Shown: positions 2,665-25,094, counted from the stretch's first letter. The stretch: 31,512 nucleotides of DNA from a bacterium (GCA_046757025.1 JBHHXN010000050.1:1-31512), one strand, 5' to 3'. Notes: generated from the sequence alone by a model not told the origin. Program-made: numbers and translations.

Positions 2665-3201
2665 CTAATTGGGGTACCAGTAGGAGACCGTTCTTCCGCC
2701 TTCGGTGTCACAGGTACATACCCGGTCGCAGGTGCAAACGGTATCGCAATCACATTGTCTAGTGGGGACGGTATCGCAGGTGCAGACCGTATCGCAGGTA
2801 CAGACGGTTTCGGTGCCAGGATAAGTACGATTTGTGGCAACGCAGTCGCAAAGGCATGTGGCGCCCTTTGGTAAAGGCTGGTCACAGGCAATGGTTTTTA
2901 TGGCTTTGCCCATGCGGCGGTCGGTTTGAGAGATATTTTGGGTATCGTAGCGTCGGGTGCGTTTTGAGCTTGAGCAGCCCGTACTCATGTTGGCCACGGC
3001 GGCTCCGCCAGCCACCGCTGCCGCAGTGGTGGAAAGCATTTTTAAAAATGCCCGCCGGGATTGCGAATCGCTTTCACGCCGGTCAACTATTTTTAGAATT
3101 TTGGCTGGCTCGCGATTTTTTTCTCCTTTGGCCGGTTGGATGAGATGATCGGGTGCTTGGGCAGGGTGAGATCGATCTACTTTTTTTTGTTTATCAATCA
3201 T
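2665..3201 (-). CDS. Cys-rich putative rSAM-modified precursor protein A1 with twin-arginine signal
   Basis: 178 aa, GGAGG RBS. SRRAFLK followed by an Ala/Gly-rich stretch and GC. CLCDC plus five CxCD repeats, 15 Cys, C-terminal SYWYPN. Paralog of 3356..3832 and downstream of four rSAM genes. Confidence 0.85.
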   Translation of the reverse strand: MIDKQKKVDRSHPAQAPDHLIQPAKGEKNREPAKILKIVDRRESDSQSRRAFLKMLSTTAAAVAGGAAVANMSTGCSSSKRTRRYDTQNISQTDRRMGKAIKTIACDQPLPKGATCLCDCVATNRTYPGTETVCTCDTVCTCDTVPTRQCDCDTVCTCDRVCTCDTEGGRTVSYWYPN

Positions 3202-3355
3202 TGTTCCTCCTCACAAAGCAAACACAAAAAATGTTTATCCGCTCGTTTTTATTTTAACAACGTAATAAAGGCCAAATTTGGCAGCCAATATTTAAGAACC
3301 TGATAAACTGTGAGCCTGCACAAATTGCCATTCACCAGTGAATTACAAAACCGCT

Positions 3356-3832
3356 TTAGTTGGGGTACCAGTAACTTCCACCACCGCCACCTTCCGAATC
3401 GCAGGTACAAACCCGGTCGCAGGTACAAACGGTATTGCACGTGCACACCGTGTCACATCTGCATGTTTGATAGGAGTGGCTTGTGGCTACGCAATCACAT
3501 AAACAAACTGCCCCTGCAGGCAAAGGATCGCTACAAGGCATTGATTTCACAGAGCTCCACTGCGATTCTCTTTGCGTATCATACTCACTTTCCATCGGGT
3601 TCGAACAACCCTGGTTGATACCAGAAACCGCCGCGCCACCAGCTAATGCCGCTGCAGTGGTGGACAGCTTTTTCAAAAAGTCCCGACGCGTTTGCGAATC
3701 ACCCTCACTTCTATTAACAATATTTAGAATCTGAGCCGGTTCTTTCGCATTTTTGTCCTCTAATGGTTTGATAGTGTGATCCGGAGGCGACTGTTTTTGC
3801 TGTCGGTGCGATTTGTTGTGTTTTTTTGCCAT
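3356..3832 (-). CDS. Cys-rich putative rSAM-modified precursor protein A2 with twin-arginine signal
   Basis: The ORF track starts at 3844, but the ATG at 3832 (MAKK) has GGAGG 5 nt upstream. TRRDFLK followed by an Ala/Gly-rich stretch and GC. CLCDC plus four CxC(D/N) repeats, 13 Cys, C-terminal GGGGGSYWYPN. Confidence 0.85.
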   Translation of the reverse strand: MAKKHNKSHRQQKQSPPDHTIKPLEDKNAKEPAQILNIVNRSEGDSQTRRDFLKKLSTTAAALAGGAAVSGINQGCSNPMESEYDTQRESQWSSVKSMPCSDPLPAGAVCLCDCVATSHSYQTCRCDTVCTCNTVCTCDRVCTCDSEGGGGGSYWYPN

Positions 3833-3938
3833 TTTTTCCTCCATTATTTAAGGTGTTATGATAAAAACTTGTTCTGTTATTTCGAGGTGTACACTACTGC
3901 TGTAGTTCTTTCAGTAAGAACAGTTATCCTCAAGCGCA

Positions 3939-4049: not shown

Positions 4050-5477
4050 TTATTCGGTTGTCAGGATCTTCTCCTTCCTGTTCTGGGTCGTTGAAGACAC
4101 CTGACGAGATCGAAACATTTCACTAAACCAGGCCCGGACCGCCAATTTATTCACCTGACACCGGAAGCCTCCCTCTCCTCGGTCATCTGTTTGTAAAAGA
4201 CACACATCCGGACAGTCCCTGGCACAATGGTAAATGTTCACGCAATCGAGGCAGCGCCGGGGGATGCGTGCCGCCTGCTGTCGCAACTGCGCCACACGTG
4301 GATGATTTAGTGCAAAGCCGGGGTCTGGTTGAAAAATTTCTTCCCCGATTTTCATGCTTGGTCCATTTGAGCTGCGGCTGTCCACGGTTAAAAAGCACAC
4401 CGTAGCCGTTCCATCCGGCGTAAGGTGCAGCACATTCCGAAACAGGTGACAGTATGGACCATGAATCTCCTCGGTTCGAACGCCCGACATGCTCAGGTTG
4501 GCGCCCATGGAATGCGCAGTCTTTTGTGCCTCCACAAAAGATTCGACAAACTCCCGGGCCGCTTGTTTCTGAAAACCTTCGGACCTGGAATGGTTCGTCA
4601 AGTAAACCGGCTCGAACCGAATCGTTTTCGCTTTGAATTCACAGCAAAATAACGCGACGATGTCTTTTTGCCGGTGAAAAGAATTCGGCGTGATCGTGGC
4701 TCGGATGGCGAACGGAACGCCTCTTTGAGCAAACAGATTCGCGGTTCGCTTCACAATTTGAAAGGTCGGTTGACCGTTCATCATAGGCCGCTGATCATTT
4801 TGAATATTTGCCGGACCATCGCACGAAAGACCGATGAGATTGAAATGGTCGGCAAGCCATTCGGCTCGGTTTTTCGGTAGAACGCCATGCGTGGCAATGT
4901 ATGCCCACCATTCAAGCCCATATTCGTGGGCGATTTTTCTCGTGCAGGCGACGATAGCTTGCAAGAGCTTCCAATGCAGCGTGGGTTCGCCGCCGCCGTG
5001 CAAAACAAGCGTAAAACGTTTGTTTTTTTTCTGACAGATTTTCGCCACCGCATGCGCGGCAGTTTGAACGGTCTGTTCGTTTATCACCGGCAGTTTTGAA
5101 TCCGCACCGTGGCGAATAGTATTCTGCGAAATACCCTGTTCCCCACAGCGGCCATTTTCATTTGCCGCAAAACAATAGCGGCAGCTCAAGTTACATTTAT
5201 TACTGAGATAGACGGTCAGGCATTCCGGCGTAAACGGCGCACTGGCCAGTTCCTGCCATCGCGATTTTGCTGCGGCAGCCGCCTCGATCAATTGAGACGC
5301 GGCCGCGGGTAATTCTAATCCTGCTGGCGCCGGCAGATGATTCAAATAGCCGGCGAATCGCTCTGCTTCCGCAGGGGAGAGCCATTGCGGACGCCCCGGG
5401 GCGTAGGCCAGATACCAGTATCTTTTTTTAATTAAAAAAATGGGCAGATCACGATGTAGCTTTTTGATTTTCATCAT
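4050..5477 (-). CDS. Radical SAM/SPASM-domain peptide maturase (rSAM-4)
   Basis: CNLSCRYC motif, HGGGEPTL, LSCDGP, and a C-terminal Cys cluster C..C..CLDC-x5-CARDC..C. The likely start is the ATG at 5477, overlapping the upstream TGA (ATGA); the ORF track extends to 5567. Confidence 0.9.
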   Translation of the reverse strand: MMKIKKLHRDLPIFLIKKRYWYLAYAPGRPQWLSPAEAERFAGYLNHLPAPAGLELPAAASQLIEAAAAAKSRWQELASAPFTPECLTVYLSNKCNLSCRYCFAANENGRCGEQGISQNTIRHGADSKLPVINEQTVQTAAHAVAKICQKKNKRFTLVLHGGGEPTLHWKLLQAIVACTRKIAHEYGLEWWAYIATHGVLPKNRAEWLADHFNLIGLSCDGPANIQNDQRPMMNGQPTFQIVKRTANLFAQRGVPFAIRATITPNSFHRQKDIVALFCCEFKAKTIRFEPVYLTNHSRSEGFQKQAAREFVESFVEAQKTAHSMGANLSMSGVRTEEIHGPYCHLFRNVLHLTPDGTATVCFLTVDSRSSNGPSMKIGEEIFQPDPGFALNHPRVAQLRQQAARIPRRCLDCVNIYHCARDCPDVCLLQTDDRGEGGFRCQVNKLAVRAWFSEMFRSRQVSSTTQNRKEKILTTE

Positions 5478-6865
5478 CCAACAATGGCGTTTAATGAAGT
5501 GTCTGCCGTGGCCGCTTTCAGCGTATGAAAGATTTGATCTTTGGTCAGCTCCTGGTTTATGTAACAACGGTCCGGCGCCTGCGGGTAGAGTTGTCCGCCT
5601 TCACGGGCTGATTTGGCAGGGCAATCGCCAGCACAGTGGTATTTGCAAAAACATTTTGAACAAAACGGTTTGTTTTGAACGGTTAATCCGTACAATTTTT
5701 TTCTTCGTTCCTCATCGATAACCATTTTTCTTGCGTTTCGGTCGAAATGGCCGTAAACAAACAGACTCGATAGCGGGTCGTCGAGGTCGAGTACTTCGAA
5801 GCAGCTCGTAATGATGGCGTTCGGGGTCACGGCGCAGGAGTTGCCAGCGGCTTCGCAGAAGATGTTTGACAAGACGCCAAAGCGGGCGCCCGAATAAGAA
5901 AGATTGCGGCCGAAGCGCATGGCAATCTTTCGAGCTTTTCTGAAACAGGTGACAAAATCCCGTGCTGCCGGCGATTTGAGATCGGATTCGATGGCGCGGC
6001 CTTGCGGAAACATCGGCTCGATTTTGATCTGCCTGGCTGCAAACTCTTCACAAAAAAACTGCACGATTTCCTCCAGTCGATGCACGCTTTTTGAGGTGAC
6101 CGTGGTGCGGATGCCGTACTGAAATCCGTTCCGATCAAAATCTTTGAGCGTTTCGAAAACGTGCATGAATGAGCCTCTGCCATTTGGAAGCGGTCGGTGC
6201 AGGTTCTGGATATCTTCGACGCCATCCACCGACACCGTGGCGCTGTCTATATTTTCAACAATCCAGCGGCGCTGTTTTGGATTCAAAATTCCCGCCAGGC
6301 CGATGGCGGTAGTGACTTTGATTTTATGCGGCGAGGTTATTTTGTGAGCATATTCCATGGTGTCTTTCAGCAGATTCCAGGCCGTGGCCACGTCTCCGCC
6401 TCCGTGAAAAATCACCGACAGGCGGCGGCTGCCAGCCTGACGCACATTCCGGCACACTTCATCCAGCACCCCGGTAACAACGTCAAACGGCATTCTGAGG
6501 ATATTTTTACCAGGAGTCAGCTCCCCACCCAGGGCATAACAATATTTGCAGCGCAGCGGACAATCGTTGGTGAGAAACAAGGTGACGCTTTGCGGTGCTA
6601 ACGGCGGTAGCGGGCGCGCGCGCCGCATTCGAGCCCGCTCCTTCCGGCTGTCAAACAACATGTCGATAAATCCTGAATTCACCCCGAGCTCGGCAATGGC
6701 AACTTTGTCGCCCTGTCGGGCACGGTAAAGCAGGTTGACGAAACGGGCGTTGGTTTCCAGCACGATCCCTTTGAGCGGTAAATAAAGGACATAGCGATCA
6801 TCCTTAGAAATACAGAAAACATCTTCAAACAACGACGCTGGTAATTTTTTATTTGCAGAATGCAT
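5474..6865 (-). CDS. Radical SAM/SPASM-domain peptide maturase (rSAM-3)
   Basis: CPLRCKYC, VSVDG, SPASM-type FC..TSC..CSKCFCKYHCAGDC..RC, GAGG RBS. The GGE motif appears as GGGDV. Confidence 0.9.
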   Translation of the reverse strand: MHSANKKLPASLFEDVFCISKDDRYVLYLPLKGIVLETNARFVNLLYRARQGDKVAIAELGVNSGFIDMLFDSRKERARMRRARPLPPLAPQSVTLFLTNDCPLRCKYCYALGGELTPGKNILRMPFDVVTGVLDEVCRNVRQAGSRRLSVIFHGGGDVATAWNLLKDTMEYAHKITSPHKIKVTTAIGLAGILNPKQRRWIVENIDSATVSVDGVEDIQNLHRPLPNGRGSFMHVFETLKDFDRNGFQYGIRTTVTSKSVHRLEEIVQFFCEEFAARQIKIEPMFPQGRAIESDLKSPAARDFVTCFRKARKIAMRFGRNLSYSGARFGVLSNIFCEAAGNSCAVTPNAIITSCFEVLDLDDPLSSLFVYGHFDRNARKMVIDEERRKKLYGLTVQNKPFCSKCFCKYHCAGDCPAKSAREGGQLYPQAPDRCYINQELTKDQIFHTLKAATADTSLNAIVG

Positions 6866-6879
6866 GAATACCTCATTCG

Positions 6880-7887
6880 TTAATTGGCAGTCATTCTGAT
6901 GGTATTTTGTAATTCTCCGGTTGACACGTTAAATTCAATTCGTCGATAACGCCGCATGGAAGCTGCGAGACATCCGCCGCTGCATTTATTTTGTATCATC
7001 CAGGTGCATTCAGCACAGTACTGGTGGAGCCTCACTTGACGATCGTGGGCTTGTTTTCTCGCGTATTGTGTTCGCAGCCACACGGCATTGTGTTTTTCTG
7101 GTAAAGGCAAGTTCACGTGTTTGAACAAGGGATAGCAGGAAATCGTCTGGCCGTTTGCAAGAATATCGATAATTGGGCTGCACGTTAACCCGACCTGACG
7201 CGCACCCATACCCAAATACTCCATCGCGCCTTCCGGGAACATGCAGGGCACCCAGCCGCAGTCGAAATCGATGGAAACGCCTCGCTTCCGGGCACGCACA
7301 GCAAATTCCGTCGCGCGCAGGCCAACTTGCGGGTAATGGTTTGGATGCAGAAATTCATTCCGACTTTCGGGATCCGGGTGAGAAAGACCGAGCCGCACGC
7401 ATTTAATCAATCCGTATTCCTGAATCAGATCGAGGATGAAATCAAGCTCAATCCCCGGACTAAAAATATTGATCCCCGGCATGACACAATTTCCTAGTTG
7501 TTTGCACAGTTCACGCTGTCGGGCATGCTCGGATGGTTTGCCTTCCTGTGGATGAAGAAGATTCAACAGCAGTTTCAGTTTACGGCCTTTCATTTTTTTC
7601 AGTGCATGGAGCACTTTGTTCGGCACCAAGCCGCCGGTAAAAATCAACAGTCGCATCTGGCGCGCCAATGCAATCTGAATCATCTCCAGAAATTGCGGAT
7701 GCAGCGTGGGTTCGCCTCCTAGCAGGCGAACCTCATTTATGCCGGAGCGCTGCAAAAAATGTAAAGCGCGTTCATATTGTGTTAGCGACATGAAACTTTG
7801 CAAATCCGGCAACTTACCTAATTTCTCCATTGCAAAACAGTAAGAGCAGGCGCGATTACATTTCGATGTGATGGAAAGATTAGCCAT
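6880..7887 (-). CDS. Short radical SAM protein with C-terminal SPASM/twitch-type Cys cluster (rSAM-2)
   Basis: CNRACSYC at residue 10, LGGEPTLHP, DCGWVPC, C..C..CAEC-x7-CSGGC. No N-terminal extension; overlaps the upstream RRE gene by 8 nt. Confidence 0.9.
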   Translation of the reverse strand: MANLSITSKCNRACSYCFAMEKLGKLPDLQSFMSLTQYERALHFLQRSGINEVRLLGGEPTLHPQFLEMIQIALARQMRLLIFTGGLVPNKVLHALKKMKGRKLKLLLNLLHPQEGKPSEHARQRELCKQLGNCVMPGINIFSPGIELDFILDLIQEYGLIKCVRLGLSHPDPESRNEFLHPNHYPQVGLRATEFAVRARKRGVSIDFDCGWVPCMFPEGAMEYLGMGARQVGLTCSPIIDILANGQTISCYPLFKHVNLPLPEKHNAVWLRTQYARKQAHDRQVRLHQYCAECTWMIQNKCSGGCLAASMRRYRRIEFNVSTGELQNTIRMTAN

Positions 7888-8164
7888 GGTTTTCCTCCCT
7901 CACTAAAAATCCCATGGCAAACCACTCATGCAAAGACTCCAAAAGCAATCTTTCTGCGTCCGGCTCATCGAGTGTGGCTATGTGAGCCAGCATGCGCACC
8001 GCCACCGGCAGGCGGTAACCACGACTCACCAAGTCCCAAACCGCGGCTTGCGGGTATTCTATGTGCAAGTGTTTTTGCGAACCTTTCACAAGCAGCAATC
8101 CCCGTCTTTCGACAACCCACCGAACTTCGGGCGCCACCTTGAATTTCTCGGGTGAATTCGTCAT
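7880..8164 (-). CDS. Stand-alone PqqD-like RiPP recognition element (RRE)
   Basis: 94 aa with a beta-strand then helix pattern typical of PqqD (AAVWDLV...LAHIA...AERLLLESLHEWFAMGFL); located between rSAM genes. Confidence 0.7.
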   Translation of the reverse strand: MTNSPEKFKVAPEVRWVVERRGLLLVKGSQKHLHIEYPQAAVWDLVSRGYRLPVAVRMLAHIATLDEPDAERLLLESLHEWFAMGFLVREENHG

Positions 8165-8184: not shown

Positions 8185-9639
8185 TTAACCAAAAATGCCG
8201 AAACCCTCTGCAATTAAAGCGCCAGAGGGCTTTTGCTCATTTGAATTTGTGTGTGCGGCTTCTCTGAATGTCTGTCCCATGAGTGAAACGGCATCCCTGT
8301 CATGGAAAGCCAGTTTTCTCATGGCGGTTCGGTTTTGCAAAAGTTCCTGAATCAATTCTTCATAACCAAGTTCGCTCAACAGCAGGCAGGCCGTGATGAT
8401 GCGCGTTTGAATGCAGAAATCGTCGTATTCCAACGAACGATCTGGAAAACTGTGGTGGACATGGCAGCCGCCGGCGCACGTCCACTGGCAAAAACAATCT
8501 TCACACAGCGGCTTTGCCATCGGCAGTTGCCGCACTCGATCGAGGGCGGCGTAATCGATATGTCCTGTGCCGTCAGCGTTGAACTGCCCCACATCCATGT
8601 TCTGTCCGCGCTGCAACCAATCTTCCTGCGGCAAATAACATGCGCTGGCGCGACCGTCCGCCGACACAATCAAAGCGTCGGTTCCCACCGGACAAAAAGA
8701 GATGCGGCTTTTGGCGATGTCCACTGCGGCATTGATGACTTTGATTCCCAGCTTACGGCCAGTTTTGATCGCTCGCATAAAGTTTATCGCAAAGTCGTAC
8801 GGCCTGGGTGGGGTGAGTCCGGCTTTTGTGGAAAGCTCCCCCGGAGTAAGCGGTTCGAAATTCACCACCACCGGATTGAACTCCTGGTACATCCAGCGAA
8901 CGATGGCCTCCAAATCGTGCACCGAATCCTGCGTCACGCAAACGCGCAAACAAAGTTGGACGGGTTTAGTGCTCAAACTGCGAGCCGTTTCCACCACGAG
9001 ATCAAAAGTACCCTGGTTATTCATGGCGGGTCGGTTACGGTTATGCGTATTTTTGAAACCGTCCAGCGACAGCACGATGGCATCGAAATAATCGCCAATA
9101 AAGACGCTTCGGCTTTTACTAAAAACACCGTTGCTGGAAACATCAAAAAAGGGGATCAGGTCGTTCTGGGCGCAGACGTAGCGTGTGCGGTGTACCACGA
9201 TGTCAACCAGCTCGGGGGCAGTGAAGGGCTCCCCACCAAAGAAATGTACACGAAAATATTTTTTACCGCTTTTCTTGAGCCTCTCAGCCATCCAGTCGAT
9301 GGCCGTTATGGCAATCCGAGGATCCATGTTTTCCCGCACCGAGGTGGGTCCGCCGAAATTGCAATAAACGCAATTTATGTTGCATCCTCTCGTGGTGATG
9401 ATGCCGAGAAATGACGGACAGATTTCACCTTTCAAAGGCGAGGGTTTTCGAAGTGGTTTCGTTGCCAGATCACGATATAAATTTGCCAGCTCGGCCGCAC
9501 CCTCAGAAAAATGACCCTGACGAAACTCTGCGGCAGCCGTATTGTTGAGCAGGGCGAAAAGGTCGCAGAGGGGTGCAAAGAGCAGCCACTTGTCCATTAT
9601 CGGAATTAAAAACACCCCATTTTGAGAAGATTTCAGCAT
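8185..9639 (-). CDS. Radical SAM/SPASM-domain peptide maturase (rSAM-1)
   Basis: CNINCVYC, FFGGEP, SSNG, LSLDG, SPASM FCPVG..SAC..CEDCFCQWTCAGGC..FC. Confidence 0.92.
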   Translation of the reverse strand: MLKSSQNGVFLIPIMDKWLLFAPLCDLFALLNNTAAAEFRQGHFSEGAAELANLYRDLATKPLRKPSPLKGEICPSFLGIITTRGCNINCVYCNFGGPTSVRENMDPRIAITAIDWMAERLKKSGKKYFRVHFFGGEPFTAPELVDIVVHRTRYVCAQNDLIPFFDVSSNGVFSKSRSVFIGDYFDAIVLSLDGFKNTHNRNRPAMNNQGTFDLVVETARSLSTKPVQLCLRVCVTQDSVHDLEAIVRWMYQEFNPVVVNFEPLTPGELSTKAGLTPPRPYDFAINFMRAIKTGRKLGIKVINAAVDIAKSRISFCPVGTDALIVSADGRASACYLPQEDWLQRGQNMDVGQFNADGTGHIDYAALDRVRQLPMAKPLCEDCFCQWTCAGGCHVHHSFPDRSLEYDDFCIQTRIITACLLLSELGYEELIQELLQNRTAMRKLAFHDRDAVSLMGQTFREAAHTNSNEQKPSGALIAEGFGIFG

Positions 9640-9650
9640 GCTAATCGGGT

Positions 9651-10118
9651 TTATTCTAATTCTTCAATTTCATTCGCGGGAATACAAATGCGATGTTGAA
9701 TTAGTTTGAAAAACACATTATTAACCTCCCTCCGGGCATTCTCGATATCGATTTGGAAATGGTTAGCCACCTCCTGCGCGGTATTTTCAATAGAAACGGT
9801 TCCTCCAAATCGCGCCAGAATAAACTCGATCACCTCGCTGGCCTCAAACAGATTCACTTCCGTGCCTTTCTCAAGGTGCCGGGCTTTGATCGCGGTGGGC
9901 TCCACGATCAAATTGTATTCCGCCAAGATGGCAGGTTGAATTTTTGCAATAACTTTGTCAGGAAAATTGAAAATCTCTGAAAGTTTCCTCTGGCGAACAC
10001 CCCGCATTTCATCAAACAGAGATGTGGCTTCGGCAAGAAAGGAACGAAAAAATCGACGACGATTGACTTTTTTTTCGATGAGTGACATGGCGCAAGGTGT
10101 TTTTAATCGGGTGCTCAC
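9651..10118 (-). CDS. Protein with C-terminal PqqD/RRE-like domain and N-terminal RRxFF motif
   Basis: The C-terminal EFILARFGGTVSIENTAQEVANHFQIDIENARREVNNVFFKLIQHRIC resembles PqqD helices; the N-terminus has NRRRFFR. The start is either GTG 10118 or ATG 10088 (MSLIEKK). Confidence 0.65.
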   Translation of the reverse strand: MSTRLKTPCAMSLIEKKVNRRRFFRSFLAEATSLFDEMRGVRQRKLSEIFNFPDKVIAKIQPAILAEYNLIVEPTAIKARHLEKGTEVNLFEASEVIEFILARFGGTVSIENTAQEVANHFQIDIENARREVNNVFFKLIQHRICIPANEIEELE

Positions 10119-11771: not shown

Positions 11772-12761
11772 TCAAGGAGACACCTCCGTTCCCAAACTTA
11801 GTTTCTCCGCATTCACTAGCGCCTGACTGGCAGCAGCTAAATCCTGTACTGCGTTGCCCACGGATTTAAAAAAAGTGATCTCCGTGTCAGAGGTACGGCC
11901 CGGTTTTGTGCCAGCCGCGATTTCGCCGATTTCCGCATAAACATGATCGGTGTCGATAAGTCCCGCCTGCAGCGGCTGCAGCAAATCGCCGGCTTCGCGC
12001 AAACACGACGGCCGGTGATCGACGATGACTTTCGCCTGCTGCACGGTTTCCACCGGAATCTCGGCCATGTCCGGGCGGTAGGCGCCGATGCCGTTGATGT
12101 GTACGCCTGGCCGCAAATGTTGATGCCAGAAAACCGGCGTCGTGGCGGTGGTTGCGGTACAGATTATATCCGCATGCTTCAGCAAATCCAACTCATTTGG
12201 CACTTCAATTGTGATCGCTAATTTTTTCTGCATCTCCCTGGCAAATCTCACCGCCTTTGAGGGATCGACGTCGAAGACGAAAGCCCTCTCGATGGTTCTG
12301 ACTGCGCACACGGCTTCGAGCTGCGCGCGACCCTGTACGCCGGCGCCAAAGATGGCGGCAACCCGGGCGTCCGAACGTGCCAGCAGATCCGTGGCCAGTC
12401 CGGAGGCGGCACCGGTGCGCAGGGCCGTCAGATATTCGCCATCCATCAATGCCAGCGGTTGGCCGGTGACGGAATCCAAAACCACTATCATGGCATGAAT
12501 CAGCGGCAGCCCATTGGGCGGGTTTTCATCCATGATGGACACAATTTTGACGCCAATCTTGCGATTTTCTTCAAGGTAGGCTGGCATGAACAACACCCGG
12601 CCTTTTTCCTTTGGCACCTCCAGGTTCATCCGAACCGGCACCACGGCCAGCCCGGACGAAAGCTGCACAAAAGCCTCTTTCATCAGGGCGATGGCCTCTT
12701 TCAGGGACAGCGCTTTTTTGACGTCTTCCCTGGAAAGTACGCGAATGGTTTGATTTGTCAT
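11772..12761 (-). CDS. Ornithine cyclodeaminase/mu-crystallin family protein, probable delta1-pyrroline-2-carboxylate reductase
   Basis: [35 protein letters not shown] and [10 protein letters not shown] motifs; clustered with a trans-3-hydroxyproline dehydratase. Confidence 0.85.
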
Positions 12762-12809
12762 TGAACTTTCCTTAAAGAAAAGGGGTGCAGAGAATAAAAT
12801 GATTCACAA

Positions 12810-13320
12810 CGCGACAAAGCCGCAAACAGCAATTGAATCACAGAATTCCAGACGCAGCCTTTTGACACAATAAATAATTAAACCACGGATTGACCCGGAT
12901 ACGCACGGATGAATGCCTATTGTGAAAAATAATAGACGAATTCATAAAGCTAAAAATTTTAAATGTACTTACAACCACATTTATTGAAACTGTGTTTTAT
13001 CCGTTCTACAAACCTGCAATGTTGTGTTTTTTTTACTAAGTTTCTGAGTGGACTCTGGTTGCCAAATATCTGTACAGCGTGAAAGCCATTAACGCAGAGG
13101 CGCGAAGGACGCAGAGGTTCGCAATGATTTTTGATTTTACTTGGATTATTCACAAATCAGGATTTTACGCTCAAAATCGAAAAACTGAGTACGGAGCATT
13201 TTTAAAATAGTCCTGTTTTTTATTTAAATTATTTCTTTTTTCTCTGCGGTCCTCTGCGCCATCGGAGTTTTATGCGTTTAACATTCTGGTCGCGGCTTTA
13301 CAGCGCGGTGCAAATCCGTG
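12810..13320. repeat. Nested palindromic repeat elements in a long intergenic region
   Basis: AAAGCCGCAAACAG (about 12816) pairs with CTGGTCGCGGCTTT (13286). CACGGAT-like repeats at 12881-12910 pair with ATCCGTG at 13314. ACGCAGAG repeats at 13091-13116 pair with CTCTGCG repeats at 13242-13258. Confidence 0.6.
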
Positions 13321-13451
13321 TCTAAAATATTTTAAATAGTTAGTTAGTCAAAACATTGTCATAAAACAATAAACTGCAGATTAGTATTACAGAATTTGGA
13401 TAAAATGTTTTTACTCTTTGGCGACTTCATCCTCATATTTATGATGTTGAA

Positions 13452-14840
13452 TTAGCTTGATGCTAATTCCTCGACCTCGGCAACGGTTTTTGGAATAGGC
13501 TTTCCCAGGATTCGACATCCTGTGTCCGTTACCAGCACGTCCTCTTCGATGCGAATGCCGCCAAACTCTCGGTACTTTTCCACTTCCTCATAATTAATGA
13601 AATCTGTAAATTTCTTTTCCGCCCGCCATCTGTCCATCAATTGCGGAATAAAATAGAGCCCCGGCTCCACGGTGATGACATAGCCCGGCTGGAGTCGTTT
13701 ACCCAGCCGCAAAGAGCGCAGTCCGAACTGCTCGCTGCGTTGGGTTTCCTCGTCGTATCCCACCAGGTCTTCGCCCAGCGCCTCCATGTCGTGCACATCC
13801 AGTCCCATCATGTGCCCGAGCCCGCACTGAAAAAACAGCGCATGCGCCCCCGCTGCCACCGCCTCTTTGACATTGCCTTTCATCAGTTGGTTATCTTTTA
13901 GTCCCTGTGTAAGATGTTCACAAGCCAACAGATGAATGTCTTTGAATTTGGCACCGGGCTTCACCGCGTCGATGGCAAACTGCAGCGCATTGTAAACAAT
14001 TTGATACATGGTTTTCTGCAGATCGGTGAATTGACCGGAGACCGGTATAGTGCGCGTGATGTCGCTGGCATAGTGCCAAGCCGAAGCCGCGCCGCAATCG
14101 TTCACCACCATATCGCCGGCATGCATGGTGTTGCCGTGGTAGTGATTGTGCAAGGTTTCCCCGTGTACGGAAAAGATAATGGGAAATGCCAGCTCACCGC
14201 CCCGGGCATGCGCCAGACCCGCCATCATACCCGCGATCTCTCGTTCGATCATGCCTGGCTGCGTTTGGCGCATGGCGGTGGTGTGCATTTCATAACTGAT
14301 GTCGAGAGCGGCATCGATTTGAGTAATCTCCTCCGACGATTTGACCGAACGCTGATCGACAACGATTTCGACCAGCTCGTGCGATACGGAATGATCGACT
14401 TGCGTGGGAGTCATGCCGGAAATTTGACTGAGTAAAATTAAATTTTCTGCGCGATACAACGGTAAAAAATGTATTTTTCTTCCTTTTTTAAGGGCCTTTT
14501 GTAATTCGATCTCTAACTGCTCGAACGGCGCGCTTTCTGCCACGCCCACTTTTTCGCTTTCTTCGCGCAAAAGCGGCTGCGGACCCGTCCAGACGATCTC
14601 TTCCACGGTCGCATCGTTGCCAAAAAGAACCTGCCGGTTTTCGTCTACATCCATCACCGCGGCGAGTCCCGGCGAATCCAACCCCCAGTAGTACAAGAAG
14701 GAGCTATCCTGCCGAAACGGATAAGCGTTGTCGCGGTAGTTTATAGGGCTTTCCTGGTTTCCCAAAAAGATCAGAATTCCCGAATCAATTTGTCGCATTA
14801 GATTCTGTCTTCGTTCGCTGTAAATTTTAGCATCAAACAT
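13452..14840 (-). CDS. Xaa-Pro aminopeptidase/prolidase (M24B)
   Basis: FRQDSSFLYYWG, LHNH, DCGA..YASDITRT, GHMMGLDVHD, TVEPGLYF, GIRIEED; GGAGG RBS. Confidence 0.92.
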   Translation of the reverse strand: MFDAKIYSERRQNLMRQIDSGILIFLGNQESPINYRDNAYPFRQDSSFLYYWGLDSPGLAAVMDVDENRQVLFGNDATVEEIVWTGPQPLLREESEKVGVAESAPFEQLEIELQKALKKGRKIHFLPLYRAENLILLSQISGMTPTQVDHSVSHELVEIVVDQRSVKSSEEITQIDAALDISYEMHTTAMRQTQPGMIEREIAGMMAGLAHARGGELAFPIIFSVHGETLHNHYHGNTMHAGDMVVNDCGAASAWHYASDITRTIPVSGQFTDLQKTMYQIVYNALQFAIDAVKPGAKFKDIHLLACEHLTQGLKDNQLMKGNVKEAVAAGAHALFFQCGLGHMMGLDVHDMEALGEDLVGYDEETQRSEQFGLRSLRLGKRLQPGYVITVEPGLYFIPQLMDRWRAEKKFTDFINYEEVEKYREFGGIRIEEDVLVTDTGCRILGKPIPKTVAEVEELASS

Positions 14841-14881
14841 GTCGCCTCCGGTTGTCGGTTATTATTGGATTGATTTATACA

Positions 14882-15670
14882 TTAAGCTAGACCGCCGCCG
14901 TCCACCACCAGATGGGCGCCGGTGACCCAACTGGACAATTTACTGGCAAAGAAAAGAACCGCATTGGCCACGTCCTCCGGCTGCCCCACCCGATTGAGCG
15001 GCCGTTTCGCCGCCTCCCGCAAAAACTCATTTTGGTCGATGCCCAGCTGCCGGGCTTCGTTGTGCAGCAATTCGGTTTCCACATCCCCGGGACAAACACA
15101 GTTCACGCGAATTTGGTGTTTACCGTGATCGATGGCCATGGCACGCGTCAGATTGAGCACCCCGCCTTTGGCCGCACAATAGGCAGCAGCCTTAGCGCCG
15201 CCTTTTAACGACCAGCCCGAACCCGTGTTGATGATGCTGCCGCCGCCGTTTTTGATCATGTGTGGAATAATCTGTTTTGATAGCAGATAGATTGATTTCA
15301 GGTCGGTATCCACCACCCGATCCCATTCTTCTTCGGTCAATTCAAGGACGTTATTGCGACGGATAACGCCGGCGTTGTTGAACAGAATGTCTATTTTGTT
15401 GAAGCGGTGAAGGATCTCATCCGTGACTTTTTCACAGTCCGTTTTTGAAATAACATCGCAGAGAAAAAAGTGCGCCCGGCCGCCAACATCTTGAATCTCT
15501 TTTGCAACCTGTTCGCCAGAGCTGACGTTGACGTCTAACAAAGCCACCGTAGCGGCCAATTCTGCAAATCGTATGGCGGTAGCGCGACCAATTCCGGAAG
15601 CGGCGCCAGTCACAACGGCTACTTTGTCTTCTAATGAAATGAGCTGCGTCGCTCGGGTTTGGGTGTTCAT
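14882..15670 (-). CDS. Short-chain dehydrogenase/reductase (SDR)
   Basis: TGAASGIG, NNAG, YCAAK catalytic motif, IRVNCVCPG. Confidence 0.92.
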   Translation of the reverse strand: MNTQTRATQLISLEDKVAVVTGAASGIGRATAIRFAELAATVALLDVNVSSGEQVAKEIQDVGGRAHFFLCDVISKTDCEKVTDEILHRFNKIDILFNNAGVIRRNNVLELTEEEWDRVVDTDLKSIYLLSKQIIPHMIKNGGGSIINTGSGWSLKGGAKAAAYCAAKGGVLNLTRAMAIDHGKHQIRVNCVCPGDVETELLHNEARQLGIDQNEFLREAAKRPLNRVGQPEDVANAVLFFASKLSSWVTGAHLVVDGGGLA

Positions 15671-15709
15671 ATAATTTACTCCAAAAGTTAGTCAGAGTTC
15701 GTAATCCGC

Positions 15710-17035
15710 TCAAAAAATTTTGGCCAGCGCTTTTTCAACAGCCGCCAACGTCACGGCCACATCTTCTGCGGAGTGCGCCAGACTGACGATAGAATGCAAA
15801 ACAGCCGAAGGTGTGGTGTACACCCCCTGCTCAAACAAGGCCAGCACCAGACGCTGGTATTTCGCCCGGTCCACAAACTGGCAGAACTCCCGGTAATCGC
15901 GGATGGCGGGCTTTTCAGTAAACATAATTTGCAGCATGGGCCCGACGTTTTGCACGATAGCCGGAATTTTCTTTTCCTTGAATAGGTTGCGCAAACCGTT
16001 ACAAAGTTTATCTGCGATCTGCCAGATATGTTTGAACGCCGCCCCCTGGTTTTCATTTAACACCTGTAAACAAGCGCGGGTAGCGTGCAGGCCGATTCGT
16101 GAAGCGTTCTGCGTACCGTAGTGCAGCACCCCGCCCCATGTCAGGGCTTGCATAATTTCAGCTCGACCAACCAAACAGGCCACCGGCAAGCCGCATCCCA
16201 GGGCTTTGCCAAAAGTCGAAATGTCCGGCTGCAGATGGTAATATTCCTGGCAGCCGCCGGCCGCCACGCGAAAGCCGGTAACGGTTTCATCCAGAATGAA
16301 AAGAATATTGTTAGAACGAGCCAGCTCCTGTAACGCTTGCAGATAACCCGGGTCGGGTGGAATGACGCCCATGTTGGCCATGACGCCTTCGGTGATGATG
16401 GCCGCGATCTGGCCGCGATCGGTTTCTATGGCCCGCTCTACCGCGGACAGATCGTTCCAGGGCAGGACGATGGTGTCTGCCAACGCATGCCGATTCAAAC
16501 CTGAGCTGTCCGCGATTTTGATGGGATCATGAGGATGCCCCAGAGAAACCACGGGCTGTGGATTGGAGTTGACCAGAAAGTCATCATACCAGCCGTGGTA
16601 GTGTCCTTCAAATTTGATAAATTGTGGTTTGCCGGTGTATCCTCGGGCCAGGCGAATGGCGGCCATGGCGGCTTCGGTGCCCGTGTTTGCAAATCGCACC
16701 CGTTCGGCGCCAGGGATCATCTTTTGTATCAATTCCGCCACTTCGATTTCGATTTCGGTGGCCGCCGCAAAGTGCGCGCCGCTGATAGCCGCTGCGCTCA
16801 AGGCTTGCGCCACCCGCGGATGAGCGTGTCCCAGGGGCAGCGCACCGTAAGCCATCATCCAGTCGAGGTAACGATTGCCATCGACGTCGTAAATGTGCGC
16901 GCCTTCCCCGCGTTCGATGAACAGCGGATACTCGCCGTAATTCACCGGCCCCCTGGAAGCCGAGCTGCCGCCTTCGATCATGACTTTGGTGGCGCGTTTA
17001 AACAGGTTTTTGGATGTTTGGGTTAAATAGGTCAT
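15710..17035 (-). CDS. Class III PLP-dependent aminotransferase (glutamate-1-semialdehyde aminomutase-like)
   Basis: DVDGNRYLD, LGHAHP, NTGTEA, FEGHYHG, ILDETVTGFR, FGKALG. The likely start is ATG 17035; the ORF track uses TTG 17059. Confidence 0.88.
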   Translation of the reverse strand: MTYLTQTSKNLFKRATKVMIEGGSSASRGPVNYGEYPLFIERGEGAHIYDVDGNRYLDWMMAYGALPLGHAHPRVAQALSAAAISGAHFAAATEIEIEVAELIQKMIPGAERVRFANTGTEAAMAAIRLARGYTGKPQFIKFEGHYHGWYDDFLVNSNPQPVVSLGHPHDPIKIADSSGLNRHALADTIVLPWNDLSAVERAIETDRGQIAAIITEGVMANMGVIPPDPGYLQALQELARSNNILFILDETVTGFRVAAGGCQEYYHLQPDISTFGKALGCGLPVACLVGRAEIMQALTWGGVLHYGTQNASRIGLHATRACLQVLNENQGAAFKHIWQIADKLCNGLRNLFKEKKIPAIVQNVGPMLQIMFTEKPAIRDYREFCQFVDRAKYQRLVLALFEQGVYTTPSAVLHSIVSLAHSAEDVAVTLAAVEKALAKIF

Positions 17036-17100
17036 TGGATATTCCAGTTTGAAGTGCAACGAACTGAGAAAATAAATTTATCAAAGCAGTCATTTTTTAC

Positions 17101-17137
17101 TTGATCGATACGTATGTTATCATTATATTTTTACGTA
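17101..17137 (+). promoter_or_regulatory. Sigma70 promoter of the TA operon with two TACGTA palindromes (putative autoregulatory operator)
   Basis: TTGATC (17101-06), 17-nt spacer, TATATT (17124-29). TACGTA at 17109-14 and 17132-37. AGGAGG RBS follows. Confidence 0.6.
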
Positions 17138-17155
17138 TAAATATTTAAGGAGGTA

Positions 17156-17407
17156 ATGATGAATACAAAACTCACGTTAAAACTCGATAAACAAGCCATT
17201 GAGAGCGCAAAAGAATATGCACAGAAAACCAATCAAAGTCTATCTATTTTGGTTCAAAATTTTTTTAATGTCATAGCTGCAAAAGTTGATAATCAAAATG
17301 ATGATATTTCACCACTTGTGCAAGAATTATCTGGCATCATTCATTTAGAAAATAACATTGATCTTAAAGAAGAGTATCATAAACATATCAACGAGAAATA
17401 TTCATAG
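17156..17407 (+). CDS. Antitoxin, ribbon-helix-helix type (DUF6364-like)
   Basis: MNTKLTLKLD..IESAKEYA....SLS.LV pattern; 1-nt overlap with the downstream PIN gene. Confidence 0.8.
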   Translation: MMNTKLTLKLDKQAIESAKEYAQKTNQSLSILVQNFFNVIAAKVDNQNDDISPLVQELSGIIHLENNIDLKEEYHKHINEKYS

Positions 17408-17832
17408 TGCTTAAAATCTTTATTGATTCAGACATAATATTGGATCTACTCGCAAAACGAAATCCACACTATGATTATGCAGCCAGGTTATTTACGTTAG
17501 TCGAGAAAAAGCAAATAAAAGCGTACACTTCACCTCTGGTTTTTGCCAATATTCACTACTTGCTCCGTAAATTAACCTCAAATGAACAAGCGAAACAAAA
17601 CCTACGCAAACTCAGGACTCTGGTTAAAATACTTTCAATAGATAAAAAAGTAATCGATTTATCTTTATTTTCAGAATTCAAAGATTTTGAAGACGCAATT
17701 CAATATCATACTGCAAACAATAACGGTTTAAAATTTTTGATCACCCGTAATAAATCGGATTATAAAAATACTAAAATCACTGTGTGCACGGCTGAGGAAT
17801 GTTTAAAAATGTTTGAAACTTTAAAACAATAG
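17407..17832 (+). CDS. PIN-domain (VapC-like) toxin
   Basis: IFIDSDIILD, DFEDAIQY and LITRNKSDY PIN motifs. Confidence 0.88.
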   Translation: MLKIFIDSDIILDLLAKRNPHYDYAARLFTLVEKKQIKAYTSPLVFANIHYLLRKLTSNEQAKQNLRKLRTLVKILSIDKKVIDLSLFSEFKDFEDAIQYHTANNNGLKFLITRNKSDYKNTKITVCTAEECLKMFETLKQ

Positions 17833-17934
17833 CGATTCAATTTTTTGACTAAATCCAACAATTTCGATTTTGTTAACCTAACACCCAAATGTCCTCAAAA
17901 TGCATGAATTCTATTTGCAAATCATTCAATACCT

Positions 17935-19071
17935 CTAAACTTCCACCCCATACCGTTTCGCATACTCTTTAAAACGTTGAATCAATTCCTGTGCGCGGGT
18001 TTCGGCCTCATCCGGATGAAGCCGTGGACAGTCATACCCCAGGGTGTCGCGCAGAATAGCCGCGGATTCTGCACAAAAAACCACCGTGCCGTCTGCCTCG
18101 ATGCGTTCGACACCATCAAAGCGATGCGAGTGTTCATTGATTGAAATCGCCGTCTCCAGCGGCAAATCGGGAATTTCCGCCACTTCTACTCCGCGGGAGC
18201 TCACCGTCACCGGGTACCCGCCCGGCAAGCCAGCCGGCGCGGGCGTATGCAGAAAAACATCCTCCTCTGAAAACAGCGCCTGAATCAATCTGACGCTGGT
18301 GGCAGCCGTGAGGAAATGGATGGCCCGTCCCGGCGTCAGCGGATACGGTGCAAACAGCCATTTTTCCGCTTCGATTTCGGCGGTGACGTCTTGGCCGCGG
18401 TGCGCAACCCGCAAGAAAAACGGCGGTTTTTTCACAGCTGGTAGCAGCGGCGTTTCACGAAACGTGTATTTTAGCAAAGCATGGTGCGCCACCAGATGAA
18501 CTCGCACTTCGTTCAGCGAAGCGTGCAATCGTTTTGCCGCCAGCCAGTGAATTTTGGGGACCACCTCTGCCACGTTGCCCACGCCGCAGGTAGGCGCCAG
18601 ATTCAGGCGTTTCAAAATTTGATTGATGACGTCGGGATAGGGCGCCGTTAAGACAAAACCCTGGTAATCTGCCCGCCGCACAGCTTCCATGAGTTTCCTG
18701 GTCAGAGTTAAATGTACGGGCAGCCAGACGCCAAATCCCGCCTGATCGAACAAAGCGCTTTGCACCGGCGGCAGCCGGTAGGGAGTCCACCAGCTTTGCA
18801 GTGTCGCCGCACTGAAAATGAGATCGGGATTTTCATTTTGGATGATTTCCGCGGTGCGCTCAGTCTGGTGCAAATCTAGAAGAATGAAACGAATATCGGT
18901 GGAAAATCCCTGGGCGATGGCACCAGATCGCGCTAAATTACAGCGCGCGGCGCCGGCTTTTTCATTGCGGCTGCCAACCACGATGACGCCGATGTGCGCG
19001 CTCCGAGCCAGAAATTCCAGCAATACACTGCCCAGATCTCCCAGTCCGATGAGCATTATTTTGGGGTTCAT
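17935..19071 (-). CDS. NAD(P)-binding Rossmann-fold oxidoreductase (saccharopine dehydrogenase-like), function unknown
   Basis: N-terminal IMLIGLGDLG (GxGxxG); YPDVIN, CGVGN and PAGLPGGYP conserved-looking motifs. Confidence 0.7.
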   Translation of the reverse strand: MNPKIMLIGLGDLGSVLLEFLARSAHIGVIVVGSRNEKAGAARCNLARSGAIAQGFSTDIRFILLDLHQTERTAEIIQNENPDLIFSAATLQSWWTPYRLPPVQSALFDQAGFGVWLPVHLTLTRKLMEAVRRADYQGFVLTAPYPDVINQILKRLNLAPTCGVGNVAEVVPKIHWLAAKRLHASLNEVRVHLVAHHALLKYTFRETPLLPAVKKPPFFLRVAHRGQDVTAEIEAEKWLFAPYPLTPGRAIHFLTAATSVRLIQALFSEEDVFLHTPAPAGLPGGYPVTVSSRGVEVAEIPDLPLETAISINEHSHRFDGVERIEADGTVVFCAESAAILRDTLGYDCPRLHPDEAETRAQELIQRFKEYAKRYGVEV

Positions 19072-19195
19072 TTTTTCCTGGCCCGGACCAGCCGGGGCTT
19101 TATTTAAGTGAAAAGGTTCCTATTTCGCTGTTGGCGGTTGGTTTTTAGCTGTTGGCTTTGAGCTTATTGAGTACCGTCCTTAAAAATTGACAAAT

Positions 19196-20254
19196 TCAAC
19201 GCAGGATAAAACCCTCTTTTAAAGGATCCTCCGGGTCGATCCAGAATTCATTTTTCCCGGTGATAAATGCCCGGCCTTCCACTTCCGGTACCACCGCCGT
19301 ATGCGGACCAAACTGCGTGGTAGCCGCCACTTTGCCAATGAATCTGCTGCCGATAATGCTCTCGATCACAACGGCCTCATCCAGTCCGATTTCACCTCTT
19401 GCGTAGTGTATGGCCATGCGGCCGCTGATGCCCGTGCCCGTGGGCGAGCGATCGACTTCGCCTTCGGCAAAAATGCACACATTGCGGCTGTGGGCCTGCG
19501 GGTTCGTTGGCGCCCCGATGAAAATAGCACCGTAAAGAAAATTCAGATCCGCTTCAAAAGGATGCCCGATTTCGCGGCTCTGTATGACCGCGCGTTTGAT
19601 AGCCATGCCTTTTTCAATCAGCTCCTGGTAATTTGCAGGTGTTAGTGAAATGCCGATGTCTTCAGCCTGTACGTAAGCATAAAACGCCCCGCCAAACGCC
19701 AGGTCGTAAGATACGGAACCCAGACCTGCCACTTCCACCTGCTCATCGAGTGCTAACACAAAGGACGGTACGTTTTGAAAATAGACGCTCTGCACCCGCT
19801 GGTTTTTTATGCGGGCATGCGCCGTGACCAGGCCCGCTGGGGTGTCTATTTTCACCTGCGTGAGCGGGCGGGACATGGGCAACATGCCGGTTTCCAGCAC
19901 CACCGTGGTTACGCCGATGATGCCATGCCCGCACATGGTGCTGAATCCTTCGTTGTGGAAAAACAAAACGCCAAAGTCGGCTTTCGCTGTCACAGCCGGT
20001 GTGAGCAAACAGCCGTACATGTCGGCGTGGCCGCGCGGCTCCCACATCAGCGCGGTACGTAAATGGTCGTGGTTCTCTTTGGCCTGACGTCTCCGTTCAA
20101 TAATGGTTCTGCCCGGCAATTCCGGAAAACCGCTGACGATCACCCGCAACGGCTCGCCTTCGGTGTGGGCGTCCACGGTGACGATTTTCTGCCAATTTTC
20201 TGGAGGCGACCAGTTTTTAATTTTATTCATGCTTTTTTGAAAATCGTTTTTCAT
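19196..20254 (-). CDS. lhpH: Proline racemase family, Cys/Thr type: trans-3-hydroxy-L-proline dehydratase
   Basis: DAHTEGEP, EPRGH, MCGHG and DRSPTGTG (Thr replaces the second catalytic Cys). Start is probably ATG 20254 or 20230; the track start at 20320 lies within a repeat. Confidence 0.85.
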   Translation of the reverse strand: MKNDFQKSMNKIKNWSPPENWQKIVTVDAHTEGEPLRVIVSGFPELPGRTIIERRRQAKENHDHLRTALMWEPRGHADMYGCLLTPAVTAKADFGVLFFHNEGFSTMCGHGIIGVTTVVLETGMLPMSRPLTQVKIDTPAGLVTAHARIKNQRVQSVYFQNVPSFVLALDEQVEVAGLGSVSYDLAFGGAFYAYVQAEDIGISLTPANYQELIEKGMAIKRAVIQSREIGHPFEADLNFLYGAIFIGAPTNPQAHSRNVCIFAEGEVDRSPTGTGISGRMAIHYARGEIGLDEAVVIESIIGSRFIGKVAATTQFGPHTAVVPEVEGRAFITGKNEFWIDPEDPLKEGFILR

Positions 20255-20304
20255 AGTCACGATTGCGATAACTTGGAGCTGTCCAAATTGATCTAATGAG
20301 TGGA

Positions 20305-20370
20305 AAGCGAAGAATCCCAACTAAGGGTGTATGTCAGGAGATTTTTCGTCGCTTTGCTCCTCAGAATGAC
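20305..20370. repeat. Partial palindromic repeat element of the 3939-4031 family
   Basis: AAGCGAAGAATCCC...GGAGATTTTTCGTCGCTTTGCTCCTCAGAATGAC. Confidence 0.6.
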
Positions 20371-20426
20371 ATCAAAAAGTTTCTTTTTGTAAAGCCACAG
20401 AGTTCGATTCAATGAAATGCATTATA

Positions 20427-21179: not shown

Positions 21180-21196
21180 CGTTTACTCTGTGTCTT

Positions 21197-23281: not shown

Positions 23282-23371
23282 GTAACCCCGTCGATTTGAA
23301 TTGAATTCATCTCGCATGTTATTTTTCCTGTGAAAATGATAAACAAACATTATTAAGGGTGTTCACGCTTT

Positions 23372-23552
23372 AGAGCCTGTGTGAAAAGTCAACTTCCGGG
23401 CTTTTGTCATTCCCCGCTTTGCGAGACAGGCAGGAGGAATCTTTTTAGTTTTGAAGTATAGTGGTGTTTCTTAAAAAGATCCCGCGGTTACGGGATGACA
23501 ATAATGGCACATCGGATTTTTAGCTGCGATATCACTTTTTCACCCAGTCTCT
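23372..23552. repeat. Composite palindromic element (outer IR plus inner GTCATTCC..GGGATGAC unit)
   Basis: Outer AGAGCCTGTGTGAAAAGT / ACTTTTTCACCCAGTCTCT; inner 23406-23499 GTCATTCC...GGAATCTTTTT...AAAAAGATCCC...GGGATGAC. Confidence 0.7.
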
Positions 23553-23608
23553 TCAGCATGTATTTCTGCACATCTTCCACGCTCGGTCAGGAATCGCACC
23601 ATTCTGGC

Positions 23609-24859: not shown

Positions 24860-25005
24860 TTCAAGTCCTAAATGCTAAAAAGAAGATCATGACTCCAAAT
24901 TGAATTTCCATTTCATGCTGGTCCTTCACTGAGCGATTCAATTCCGCCGTACCGCCGCTGTCCAATCTTTCGAGATTGCCTGCAGACACCTGATTCTTCG
25001 GCTCT

Positions 25006-25094
25006 GTCATTCCGTAGGAATCTTTTTAGAATTTACGTAAAGTGCTGTTTATTAAAAAGTTTCTTACAGCCTGTCCCGCAAGGCGGGGAATGAC
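25006..25094. repeat. Palindromic element, inverted copy of 23406-23499
   Basis: Reverse complement GTCATTCCCCGCCTTGCGGGACAGGC matches GTCATTCCCCGCTTTGCGAGACAGGC at 23406. Confidence 0.7.

Follow-up and report, generated by a model that had tools for sequence, protein, structure and literature searches.

A C-terminal YWYPN tail on ranthipeptide-like precursors travels with extra radical-SAM enzymes across many bacterial groups

Two neighboring genes in the 31,512-nucleotide stretch of bacterial DNA analyzed here (the window, at its full length) encode Cys-repeat precursors that end in the same five residues, YWYPN. Upstream of them, on the same strand and tightly packed, lie genes for x155, R1, x94, R2, R3 and R4, the four R genes encoding radical-SAM enzymes. 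What does the tail do, and why should several such enzymes stand beside one type of substrate? A preliminary description of the locus proposed that the tail is a second modification site, distinct from the Cys repeats, and that this would help explain the multiple maturases.

The precursors and their tail

Features of the two precursors in the window are as follows.

2665..3201 (-): precursor A, 178 aa, with leader, Tat signal, lipobox-like Cys, CxC repeats and tail; TIGR01409 at 21.6 bits, cut-off 16.7
2668..2682 (-): precursor A, YWYPN tail, then stop codon
2710..2802 (-): precursor A, C-[TSD]-C-[DN]-x-V repeats, residues 134-164
2842..2886 (-): precursor A, C-x2-PLPxGAxCxCxC Cys module, present in WD40-type substrates too
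2974..3057 (-): precursor A, twin-arginine motif RRAFL, hydrophobic stretch and lipobox-like Cys76
3085..3111 (-): precursor A, leader motif EPAKILKIV, the likely RRE-binding site
3356..3844 (-): precursor B, 162 aa, architecture as in precursor A; TIGR01409 at 26.9 bits
3359..3373 (-): precursor B, YWYPN tail, then stop codon
3401..3535 (-): precursor B, Cys module and CxC repeats
3605..3742 (-): precursor B, leader motif (3716-3742), RRDFL (3674-3688) and lipobox-like Cys80 (3605-3607)

The tail closes both reading frames at 2668-2682 and 3359-3373, as first described, with precursor A ending in EGGRTVSYWYPN and precursor B in EGGGGGSYWYPN, each followed directly by its stop codon. Precursor B has 158 aa if it is begun at the ATG at 3832, which has a GGAGG site upstream. 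Both proteins run in the same order: leader (EPAKILKIV or EPAQILNIV in the window, E-x-P-x-[IV]-[YF]-x-[IV] as the consensus across the family), Tat signal, lipobox-like Gly-Cys, C-x2-PLPxGAxCxCxC, C-x-C-[DN]-x-V repeats, a short linker and the tail. Their twin-arginine motif, hydrophobic region and lipobox Cys, with TatC and Lgt both encoded in the genome, predict Tat-exported lipoproteins, and a Cys lies 12-40 residues past the RR in 132 of 148 Tat-bearing homologues, mostly preceded by G, S or A. Except for the Tat signal, no NCBIfam or Pfam family covers the precursors; the ESM Atlas gave leads only, all under 0.9, and a scan for promoters and terminators stayed at chance level.

Since A and B are paralogues, with 96 of 182 aligned columns identical, the match between their tails is no independent evidence, and the weight rests on homologues. 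Of the 12,316 frames in the genome that close with a stop codon and reach 100 aa or more, two end in YWYPN (about 0.00015 expected) and three in Y[WY][YH]Px (about 0.02 expected). The pattern search of ORF ends that had been suggested as a check did find a further tail precursor near radical-SAM genes: a Cys-repeat protein on contig C209 that ends in GHYWHPN and has three more radical-SAM genes next to it. This second locus of the family in the same genome (L001, G000:C209, 1772-8293) has a precursor without a Tat signal, two R3-like enzymes (Ra and Rb), a 146-aa protein whose start resembles a Tat signal, and a fusion of HemN-like and radical-SAM parts. The Ra gene (4312-5781, -) contains an in-frame TAA near its 5' end and is either a pseudogene or the product of an assembly error.

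Searching with precursor B gave 24 proteins, and a profile built from these found 281 representatives at E<=0.001; the listing covers the best 150. The motif is conserved among homologues: 143 of the 165 proteins in the homologue set have a tail-like end, 83 of them exactly YWYPN, in a set that is biased toward the tail because its search profile included it. Leader and Tat motif follow in order in 137 of the 165, and 53 are at least 250 aa long. The tail is borne by short precursors and by WD40 proteins of 400-570 aa, and the long homologues that were scanned carry WD40 or PKD cargo. Leader, signal, Cys module and tail therefore form a frame around variable cargo.

At the DNA level, 50 distinct tails draw on each of the four codons for Pro, on both codons for Tyr and on every stop. 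Because synonymous codons and stops vary, selection acts on the tail peptide, and the same free variation rules out a DNA- or RNA-level motif. The tail had been called invariant, which holds, nearly without exception, for its first Tyr and its Pro only, while the other positions vary among 186 pooled tails: position 2 is W in 167, Y in 18 and F in 1; position 3 is Y in 157, H in 17, R in 7 and F in 5; and the last is N in 141, C in 20, T in 11 and S in 7. The EGG described ahead of it shows no conservation, and among homologues 1-35 residues separate the last Cys from the tail.

Eleven homologues end at YWY, YYY or YYV, without Pro-Asn, and a Y-x-x-P-x-[IVM] leader occurs in 10 of these 11 versus 0 of the 154 others, for which a narrower pattern was used. 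This subfamily includes P0059, P0062, P0066, P0068-P0070, P0073, P0077, P0078 and P0080, and we take its leader to resemble the lasso-peptide RRE motif. Its genomic context was not found in 341 genomes. Profile A1 gave no match in 40 relatives; it misses some subtypes, since L194, one of those 40, holds a tail precursor with a different leader.

Enzymes that accompany the tail

The enzyme and RRE genes of the cluster are listed below.

4050..5567 (-): R4, radical-SAM/SPASM enzyme of a tail-associated clade; true start probably near 5470
5474..6865 (-): R3, radical-SAM/SPASM enzyme common to all substrate classes; likely Cys-thioether maturase
6880..7887 (-): R2, short radical-SAM enzyme with its motif at the N-terminus and no RRE; tail-associated
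7880..8164 (-): x94, stand-alone RRE-like protein, tail-associated; overlaps the R2 start by 8 bases
8185..9639 (-): R1, radical-SAM/SPASM enzyme of the most tightly tail-associated clade, with an active site unlike that of R3
9651..10118 (-): x155, PqqD/RRE-like protein with an N-terminal RRxFF motif, tail-associated

R1 to R4 are radical-SAM enzymes that all score below every curated family cut-off. The best PDB matches of the x94 profile are the lasso RREs TbiB1 (E=0.0046) and TfuB1, and the x155 profile matches PqqD 3g2b (E=6e-5).

Elsewhere in the window, a GT2 glycosyltransferase and a 513-aa membrane protein without a family match follow the precursors (70-2444, -); both (1731-2444 and 70-1611) were rejected as parts of the system, as neither has a homologue in the 160 related loci described below. 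A proline/hydroxyproline catabolic region (11772-29929, -) holds two proline racemase-family genes and genes for an ornithine cyclodeaminase, an Xaa-Pro peptidase, a D-amino-acid dehydrogenase, an aldehyde dehydrogenase, a DapA-like protein and a GntR regulator. On the opposite strand, an 83-aa ORF and a PIN-domain gene (17156-17832, +) are probably a toxin-antitoxin pair.

A survey blind to the tail used R3 homologues as bait and gave 160 loci from genomes and metagenomes (the best 80 of 479 and the best 80 of 475 relatives). A Cys-repeat substrate was called in 99 of them: 23 of YWYPN type (T), 27 ending in C[VA]PVH (H) and 49 others (O), the last including three doubtful calls (L073, L115 and L116) that were excluded from the repeat comparison and tree tests. 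R1 occurred in 16/23 T, 0/27 H and 0/49 O loci, R4 in 13/23, 0/27 and 0/49, and R2 in 14/23, 0/27 and 1/49, the R2 call in L058 being a weak partial match. At least one of the three was present in 19/23 T, 0/27 H and 1/49 O loci, counts from which Fisher values overstate the association. Among loci of at least 12 kb the figures were 15/16 T versus 1/52 H and O together, and 0/26 without a called substrate. R1 and R4 each form a supported clade confined to tail loci or loci without a called substrate, and the RRE-like proteins behaved similarly, with x94 in 10 T and x155 in 12 T loci and neither in any H or O locus. R1 was not found in any of 47 assemblies searched (12 H, 23 O and 12 unassigned), most of them incomplete and with at most 32 candidates scored per genome; of three T assemblies checked, one had R1 and two used the paralogue Ra.

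T, H and O substrates resemble one another in the repeat unit, C-[TS]-C-[NDV]-x-V, and the leader motif is found in each class. Because these parts look alike in every class, it is the tail that the extra enzymes track. The tail travels with its own set of extra radical-SAM enzymes across many bacterial groups. The enzyme half of the original proposal, that a second site explains multiple maturases, gains real support from the genomes in that R1, R2 and R4 are nearly confined to tail loci; its other half, that the tail is modified and not just recognized, is probable.

The pattern recurred in a second set of 23 loci from evenly drawn genomes of four groups, for which the R2 profile was rebuilt without two U32 proteins of an earlier alignment. 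All nine T loci (one a duplicate; eight of eight new) carry R1, R2 or R4. Five of six tail-less loci have none of these, and the sixth, ending in QTYWW, has R2 only, as does L064. Among the eight loci without a called substrate, one has a substrate truncated by the contig end, and another has a tail substrate and enzymes on other contigs; in L237 the enzyme set is complete, but neither the 20 kb nor the assembly yielded a substrate. Across 167 genomes of the window's phylum, R1 was seen in five other genomes, three of which have tail substrates; in the other two, which are fragmented, no tail substrate was found.

Tail loci are scattered over the R3 tree, some within tail-less clades, and L062 and L153 are tail loci with R1 and R4 nested in such clades. 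On a careful R3 tree of 113 rows, excluding the duplicates L200, L201 and L228, the tail changes state eight times. Supported branches gave four independent pairs, in which, on average, the enzyme set follows the tail in 3.6-3.8 and opposes it in 0.0 (p=0.125); the same test on quick trees gave p=0.125 and 0.0625. The phylogenetic direction is consistent, and a test of four pairs is underpowered and not significant.

There are exceptions. L105 (21 kb) and L247 have the tail with R3 only, the assembly of L247 lacking R1 and R4. No extra enzyme is universal: R1 is missing genome-wide in L058 and L059, and L027 and L081 have R1 without R2 or R4. Tyr/Trp-rich ends without extra enzymes occur in L053, L070, L118, L120 and L140. 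R2 also occurs with two Tyr/Trp-rich tail-less substrate ends: L064 (11206-18031) and L240 (4065-14476) lack Pro-Asn and have R2 and B12-type enzymes but neither R1 nor R4, which hints that aromatic residues are what R2 follows. Taken together, the evidence that the tail has its own enzymes is strong, though not yet phylogenetically proven.

The C[VA]PVH loci (for example L006, 11304-16507, and L076, 11236-16263) have a cassette of their own. In the 160-locus set, a B12 radical-SAM enzyme occurs in 25/27 H and 0/23 T loci, and a U32 protein in 21/27 H loci and a U32-like protein in 4/23 T loci. The terminal His of C[VA]PVH is a candidate target. A further conserved protein of about 290 aa was seen in 13 H loci. 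Universal U32-dependent hydroxylation of the YWYPN tail was rejected on the T-locus count just given and because no U32-like protein was found in this assembly.

By a crude pattern, a small Tat-signal protein lies adjacent in 36 of 53 loci whose substrate lacks a signal and in 3 of 40 whose substrate has one (examples are L001, 3570-4010; L008, 9463-9957; L053, 9518-9997; and L027, 3188-3715). The one in L008 carries a PqqD domain. These neighbors suggest that the modified peptide may be exported by Tat piggy-back on an RRE carrier.

Relation to known maturases

The nearest relatives of the enzymes make thioethers. PapB (NF047865) is the top NCBIfam match for R1 and R3 and the second for R4, and CteB (PDB 5WGG/5WHY; SCIFF, TIGR03974) is the top PDB match for all three. 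Like those ranthipeptide maturases, R1, R3 and R4 have an N-terminal RRE-like region, a radical-SAM core and the SPASM Cys pattern, and, as in ranthipeptide loci, such an RRE-radical-SAM-SPASM enzyme stands beside a leader and a Cys-rich core. They are nevertheless distant, scoring 67-113 bits (best 112.7) against the PapB cut-off of 340, and no score exceeds the cut-off of NF047865, TIGR03974, TIGR03906, TIGR04463, TIGR04115 or NF038107. Unlike the PapB and CteB systems, this one has four enzymes rather than one, CxC repeats, Tat/lipoprotein substrates of up to 570 aa and a separate aromatic tail with its own enzymes.

Two further systems are also close in logic. In Methanococcus voltae, the SPASM radical-SAM enzyme CrpC makes ranthionine links in the Cys-rich C-terminal repeats of CrpA, and, like the window's substrates, those of CrpC are protein-sized, share an N-terminal leader and include tandem paralogues; that system has a single enzyme and another repeat, and the available text of the source describes no aromatic tail or Tat signal (PMC13692751). 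The window enzymes reach 31-46 bits against the CrpC (TIGR04463) cut-off of 525. For QhpC of quinohemoprotein amine dehydrogenase, the available text of PMC7876137 describes how QhpD adds Cys thioethers, QhpG then modifies a Trp and export follows, a two-tier logic, on a small leader-bearing protein, like that proposed below. The Qhp system differs in that the aromatic residues of interest here sit in a C-terminal tail; among the R3 loci, neither a flavoprotein nor a subtilisin nor an ABC exporter followed that tail, and scores against QhpD (TIGR03906) are 26-70 bits versus 453.

The preliminary description had instead compared the tail with triceptides and darobactin or dynobactin. At the level of the peptide the comparison has some appeal, as triceptide enzymes join an aromatic residue to a C-beta within a three-residue motif, and the tail holds aromatic-X-X triplets that could fit this rule as given in the available text of PMC11499958. 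At the level of the enzymes it finds no support, all four lying far under the cyclophane cut-offs and nearest to PapB and CteB. We compared XncB, GrrM/OscB, YhhB, AmcB, FxsB and ChlB, as well as DarE and the dynobactin maturase: matches are at most 67 bits overall against cut-offs of 310-450, with TIGR04261, TIGR04269, NF041707 and NF041718 at most 52 bits against 310-445, dynobactin NF041298 at 42-67 bits against 450, and no darobactin model among the best 25 matches.

Active sites were read at six catalytic-site positions taken from the available text of PMC10288494, some of them, position 3 in particular, being parsed in part of the rows. R3 has Y/H/A/S/(Y or F)/E in all substrate classes, R4 has Y/H/A/S/F/x, and R1 has (G or D)/F/(S, A or T)/S/Y/L, while at the same positions CteB has F/F/T/S/H/Q and ChlB has Y/H/Q/S at the first four. 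None of the three profiles matches a known one: they differ from that of CteB, and the Tyr/His/Gln/Ser profile of ChlB was not found, its Gln (QTNG) being absent from the residues read in R1, R3 and R4, many rows of which were unparsed. R3 and R4 do share a feature with ChlB, a His before GGGEP where ChlB has one before GGEP (available text of PMC10288494); this is not diagnostic, because R3 enzymes of substrates without an aromatic tail have it too. After CxxxCxxC, R1 has Gly in 9 and Asp in 9 of 24 sequences, and its pocket differs because these small residues replace the Phe of CteB and the Tyr of R3. The clear difference between active sites suggests that R1, whose predicted structure has a pLDDT of 88, may run a different reaction from R3.

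A short aromatic C-terminal motif is modified in at least one known system. Like the tail, the YLYD of ApyA (aminopyruvatide) follows a Gly-containing stretch and has several dedicated enzymes, acquiring a Tyr-Tyr cross-link, B12 radical-SAM beta-methylation and C-terminal cleavage; ApyA uses a P450 and an MNIO, neither present in the window's cluster, and, in the available text of PMC13703928, has no Cys repeats, Tat signal or protein cargo. With ScmE/ScmF of the SynChlorMet cassette, R2 reaches 29-36 bits, below the cut-off of 400. Splicease chemistry acts on Tyr-Gly; it was rejected here, since Tyr-Gly does not occur in the tail and R2 reaches 23 bits where TIGR04103 requires 725.

A description of this family was not found in the literature searched, including the supplements of PMC10288494 and PMC13692751; subscription journals or accession-only supplements could still contain members. 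The tail is thus a conserved feature of a ranthipeptide-like system that was not found in print, with its precursor and enzymes outside curated families.

What the tail may be

We think it probable that the YWYPN tail is a second site, apart from the Cys repeats, and is covalently modified by its own enzymes, with the likelihood divided about evenly between a Y-W-X aromatic-to-C-beta ring, a Cys-to-tail thioether and other radical chemistry. The Y-W-(Y/H/R/F) triplet suits all tails, while Y-P-N fails in the Arg variants (7/186) and W-Y-P in the 11 homologues ending at YWY, YYY or YYV, which together rule out either of the latter as a universal ring.

Maturation might then proceed as follows. 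RRE domains would bind the shared leader E-x-P-x-[IV]-[YF]-x-[IV], and R3, like PapB, CteB, QhpD and CrpC in their substrates, would install thioethers in the C-x-C-[D/N/V]-x-V repeats. As their co-occurrence suggests, R1 and R4 (or the paralogue Ra), aided by R2, x94 and x155, would act on the tail where it ends a flexible Gly/Ser linker, making one or more radical cross-links centered on its Tyr-Trp-(Tyr/His/Arg/Phe) core. The bond could equally well be an aromatic-ring-to-C-beta ring within the tail or a thioether from a Cys sulfur to the tail, which in the latter case would be folded back onto the repeats. The signals seen in the precursors would direct Tat export of the folded product and lipidation at Cys76 or Cys80, with the leader presumably lost along with the signal peptide. 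The end product would be a cross-linked Cys knot that is anchored in the membrane and tipped with modified aromatic residues, either by itself or following a WD40 or PKD domain.

The same co-occurrence would be expected if R1, R4, R2 or the RREs merely gripped the tail as an unmodified follower motif while modifying the Cys repeats or the linker, since co-occurrence reads alike for "modified by" and "recognized by." R1 and R4 are indeed paralogues of R3, closest to the Cys-thioether-forming CteB and PapB, two extra RRE-like proteins accompany the tail, and a docking motif suits a strict, free C-terminal position. However, the repeats are alike in tail and tail-less classes, all classes already have an N-terminal leader, the linker can be a single residue, and the parallel pairing of CVPVH with B12 and U32 enzymes is more simply read as tail chemistry; we therefore regard a follower as unlikely. 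It is more improbable still that the tail stays unmodified and serves the mature protein as a functional epitope, for binding or as a structural cap, having been co-inherited for historical reasons with enzymes that act elsewhere. Such an epitope could account for the retention of the tail with R3 only in L105 and L247 and for the enzymes of L237, for which no substrate was found, and the four well-supported independent pairs, at p=0.125, leave it some room; against it stand the R3 tree, on which the tail changes state eight times and a change the opposite way is practically never seen, the R1- and R4-bearing tail loci L062 and L153 inside tail-less clades, and the recurrence of the pattern in evenly drawn genomes.

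A sorting or secretion tag, whether an outer-membrane, sortase-like or surface-anchoring signal, had been offered as an alternative in the preliminary description, and the tail does lie at the extreme C-terminus of proteins that mostly have Tat and lipobox signals. The distribution contradicts it and makes it very improbable. The tail occurs in monoderm Actinomycetota and Chloroflexota as well as in diderm phyla, seven T substrates lack a Tat signal (L001, L027, L058, L059, L081, L095 and L119), Tat-signal WD40 substrates of the same family lack the tail, and many O substrates have a Tat signal. The tail is thus not tied to export; moreover, no transporter or peptidase family tracked it, whereas radical-SAM enzymes and RREs did.

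Covalent modification of the tail could also be part of something broader, which we put forward tentatively, as possible if doubtful: a modular system in which exchangeable C-terminal tails, each with its own enzyme cassette, are mounted on a common Cys-knot chassis. YWYPN would go with R1, R2 and R4, optionally with HemN-like and U32 proteins, and CVPVH with U32 and the B12 radical-SAM enzyme. For YWYPN, the five residues would be converted by three to five radical enzymes that need no oxygen into a multi-ring structure or a protein-derived Tyr/Trp cofactor, displayed on Tat-exported lipoproteins and beta-propellers as an anaerobic counterpart of CTQ/TTQ-type biogenesis.

If the tail is indeed modified by its own enzymes, three uncharacterized radical-SAM clades would gain a precise five-residue target, and the tail-less substrates served by R3 alone would be natural negative controls. 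The reach of RiPP-style tailoring would then grow beyond small peptides to take in full-size exported proteins, marked with a portable tag, in many uncultured phyla. Protein engineers would have an interest in a combination of leader and tail that accepts anything from zero to several hundred residues of cargo, and co-variation between tail and cassette would serve to predict where other orphan multi-enzyme clusters modify their substrates.
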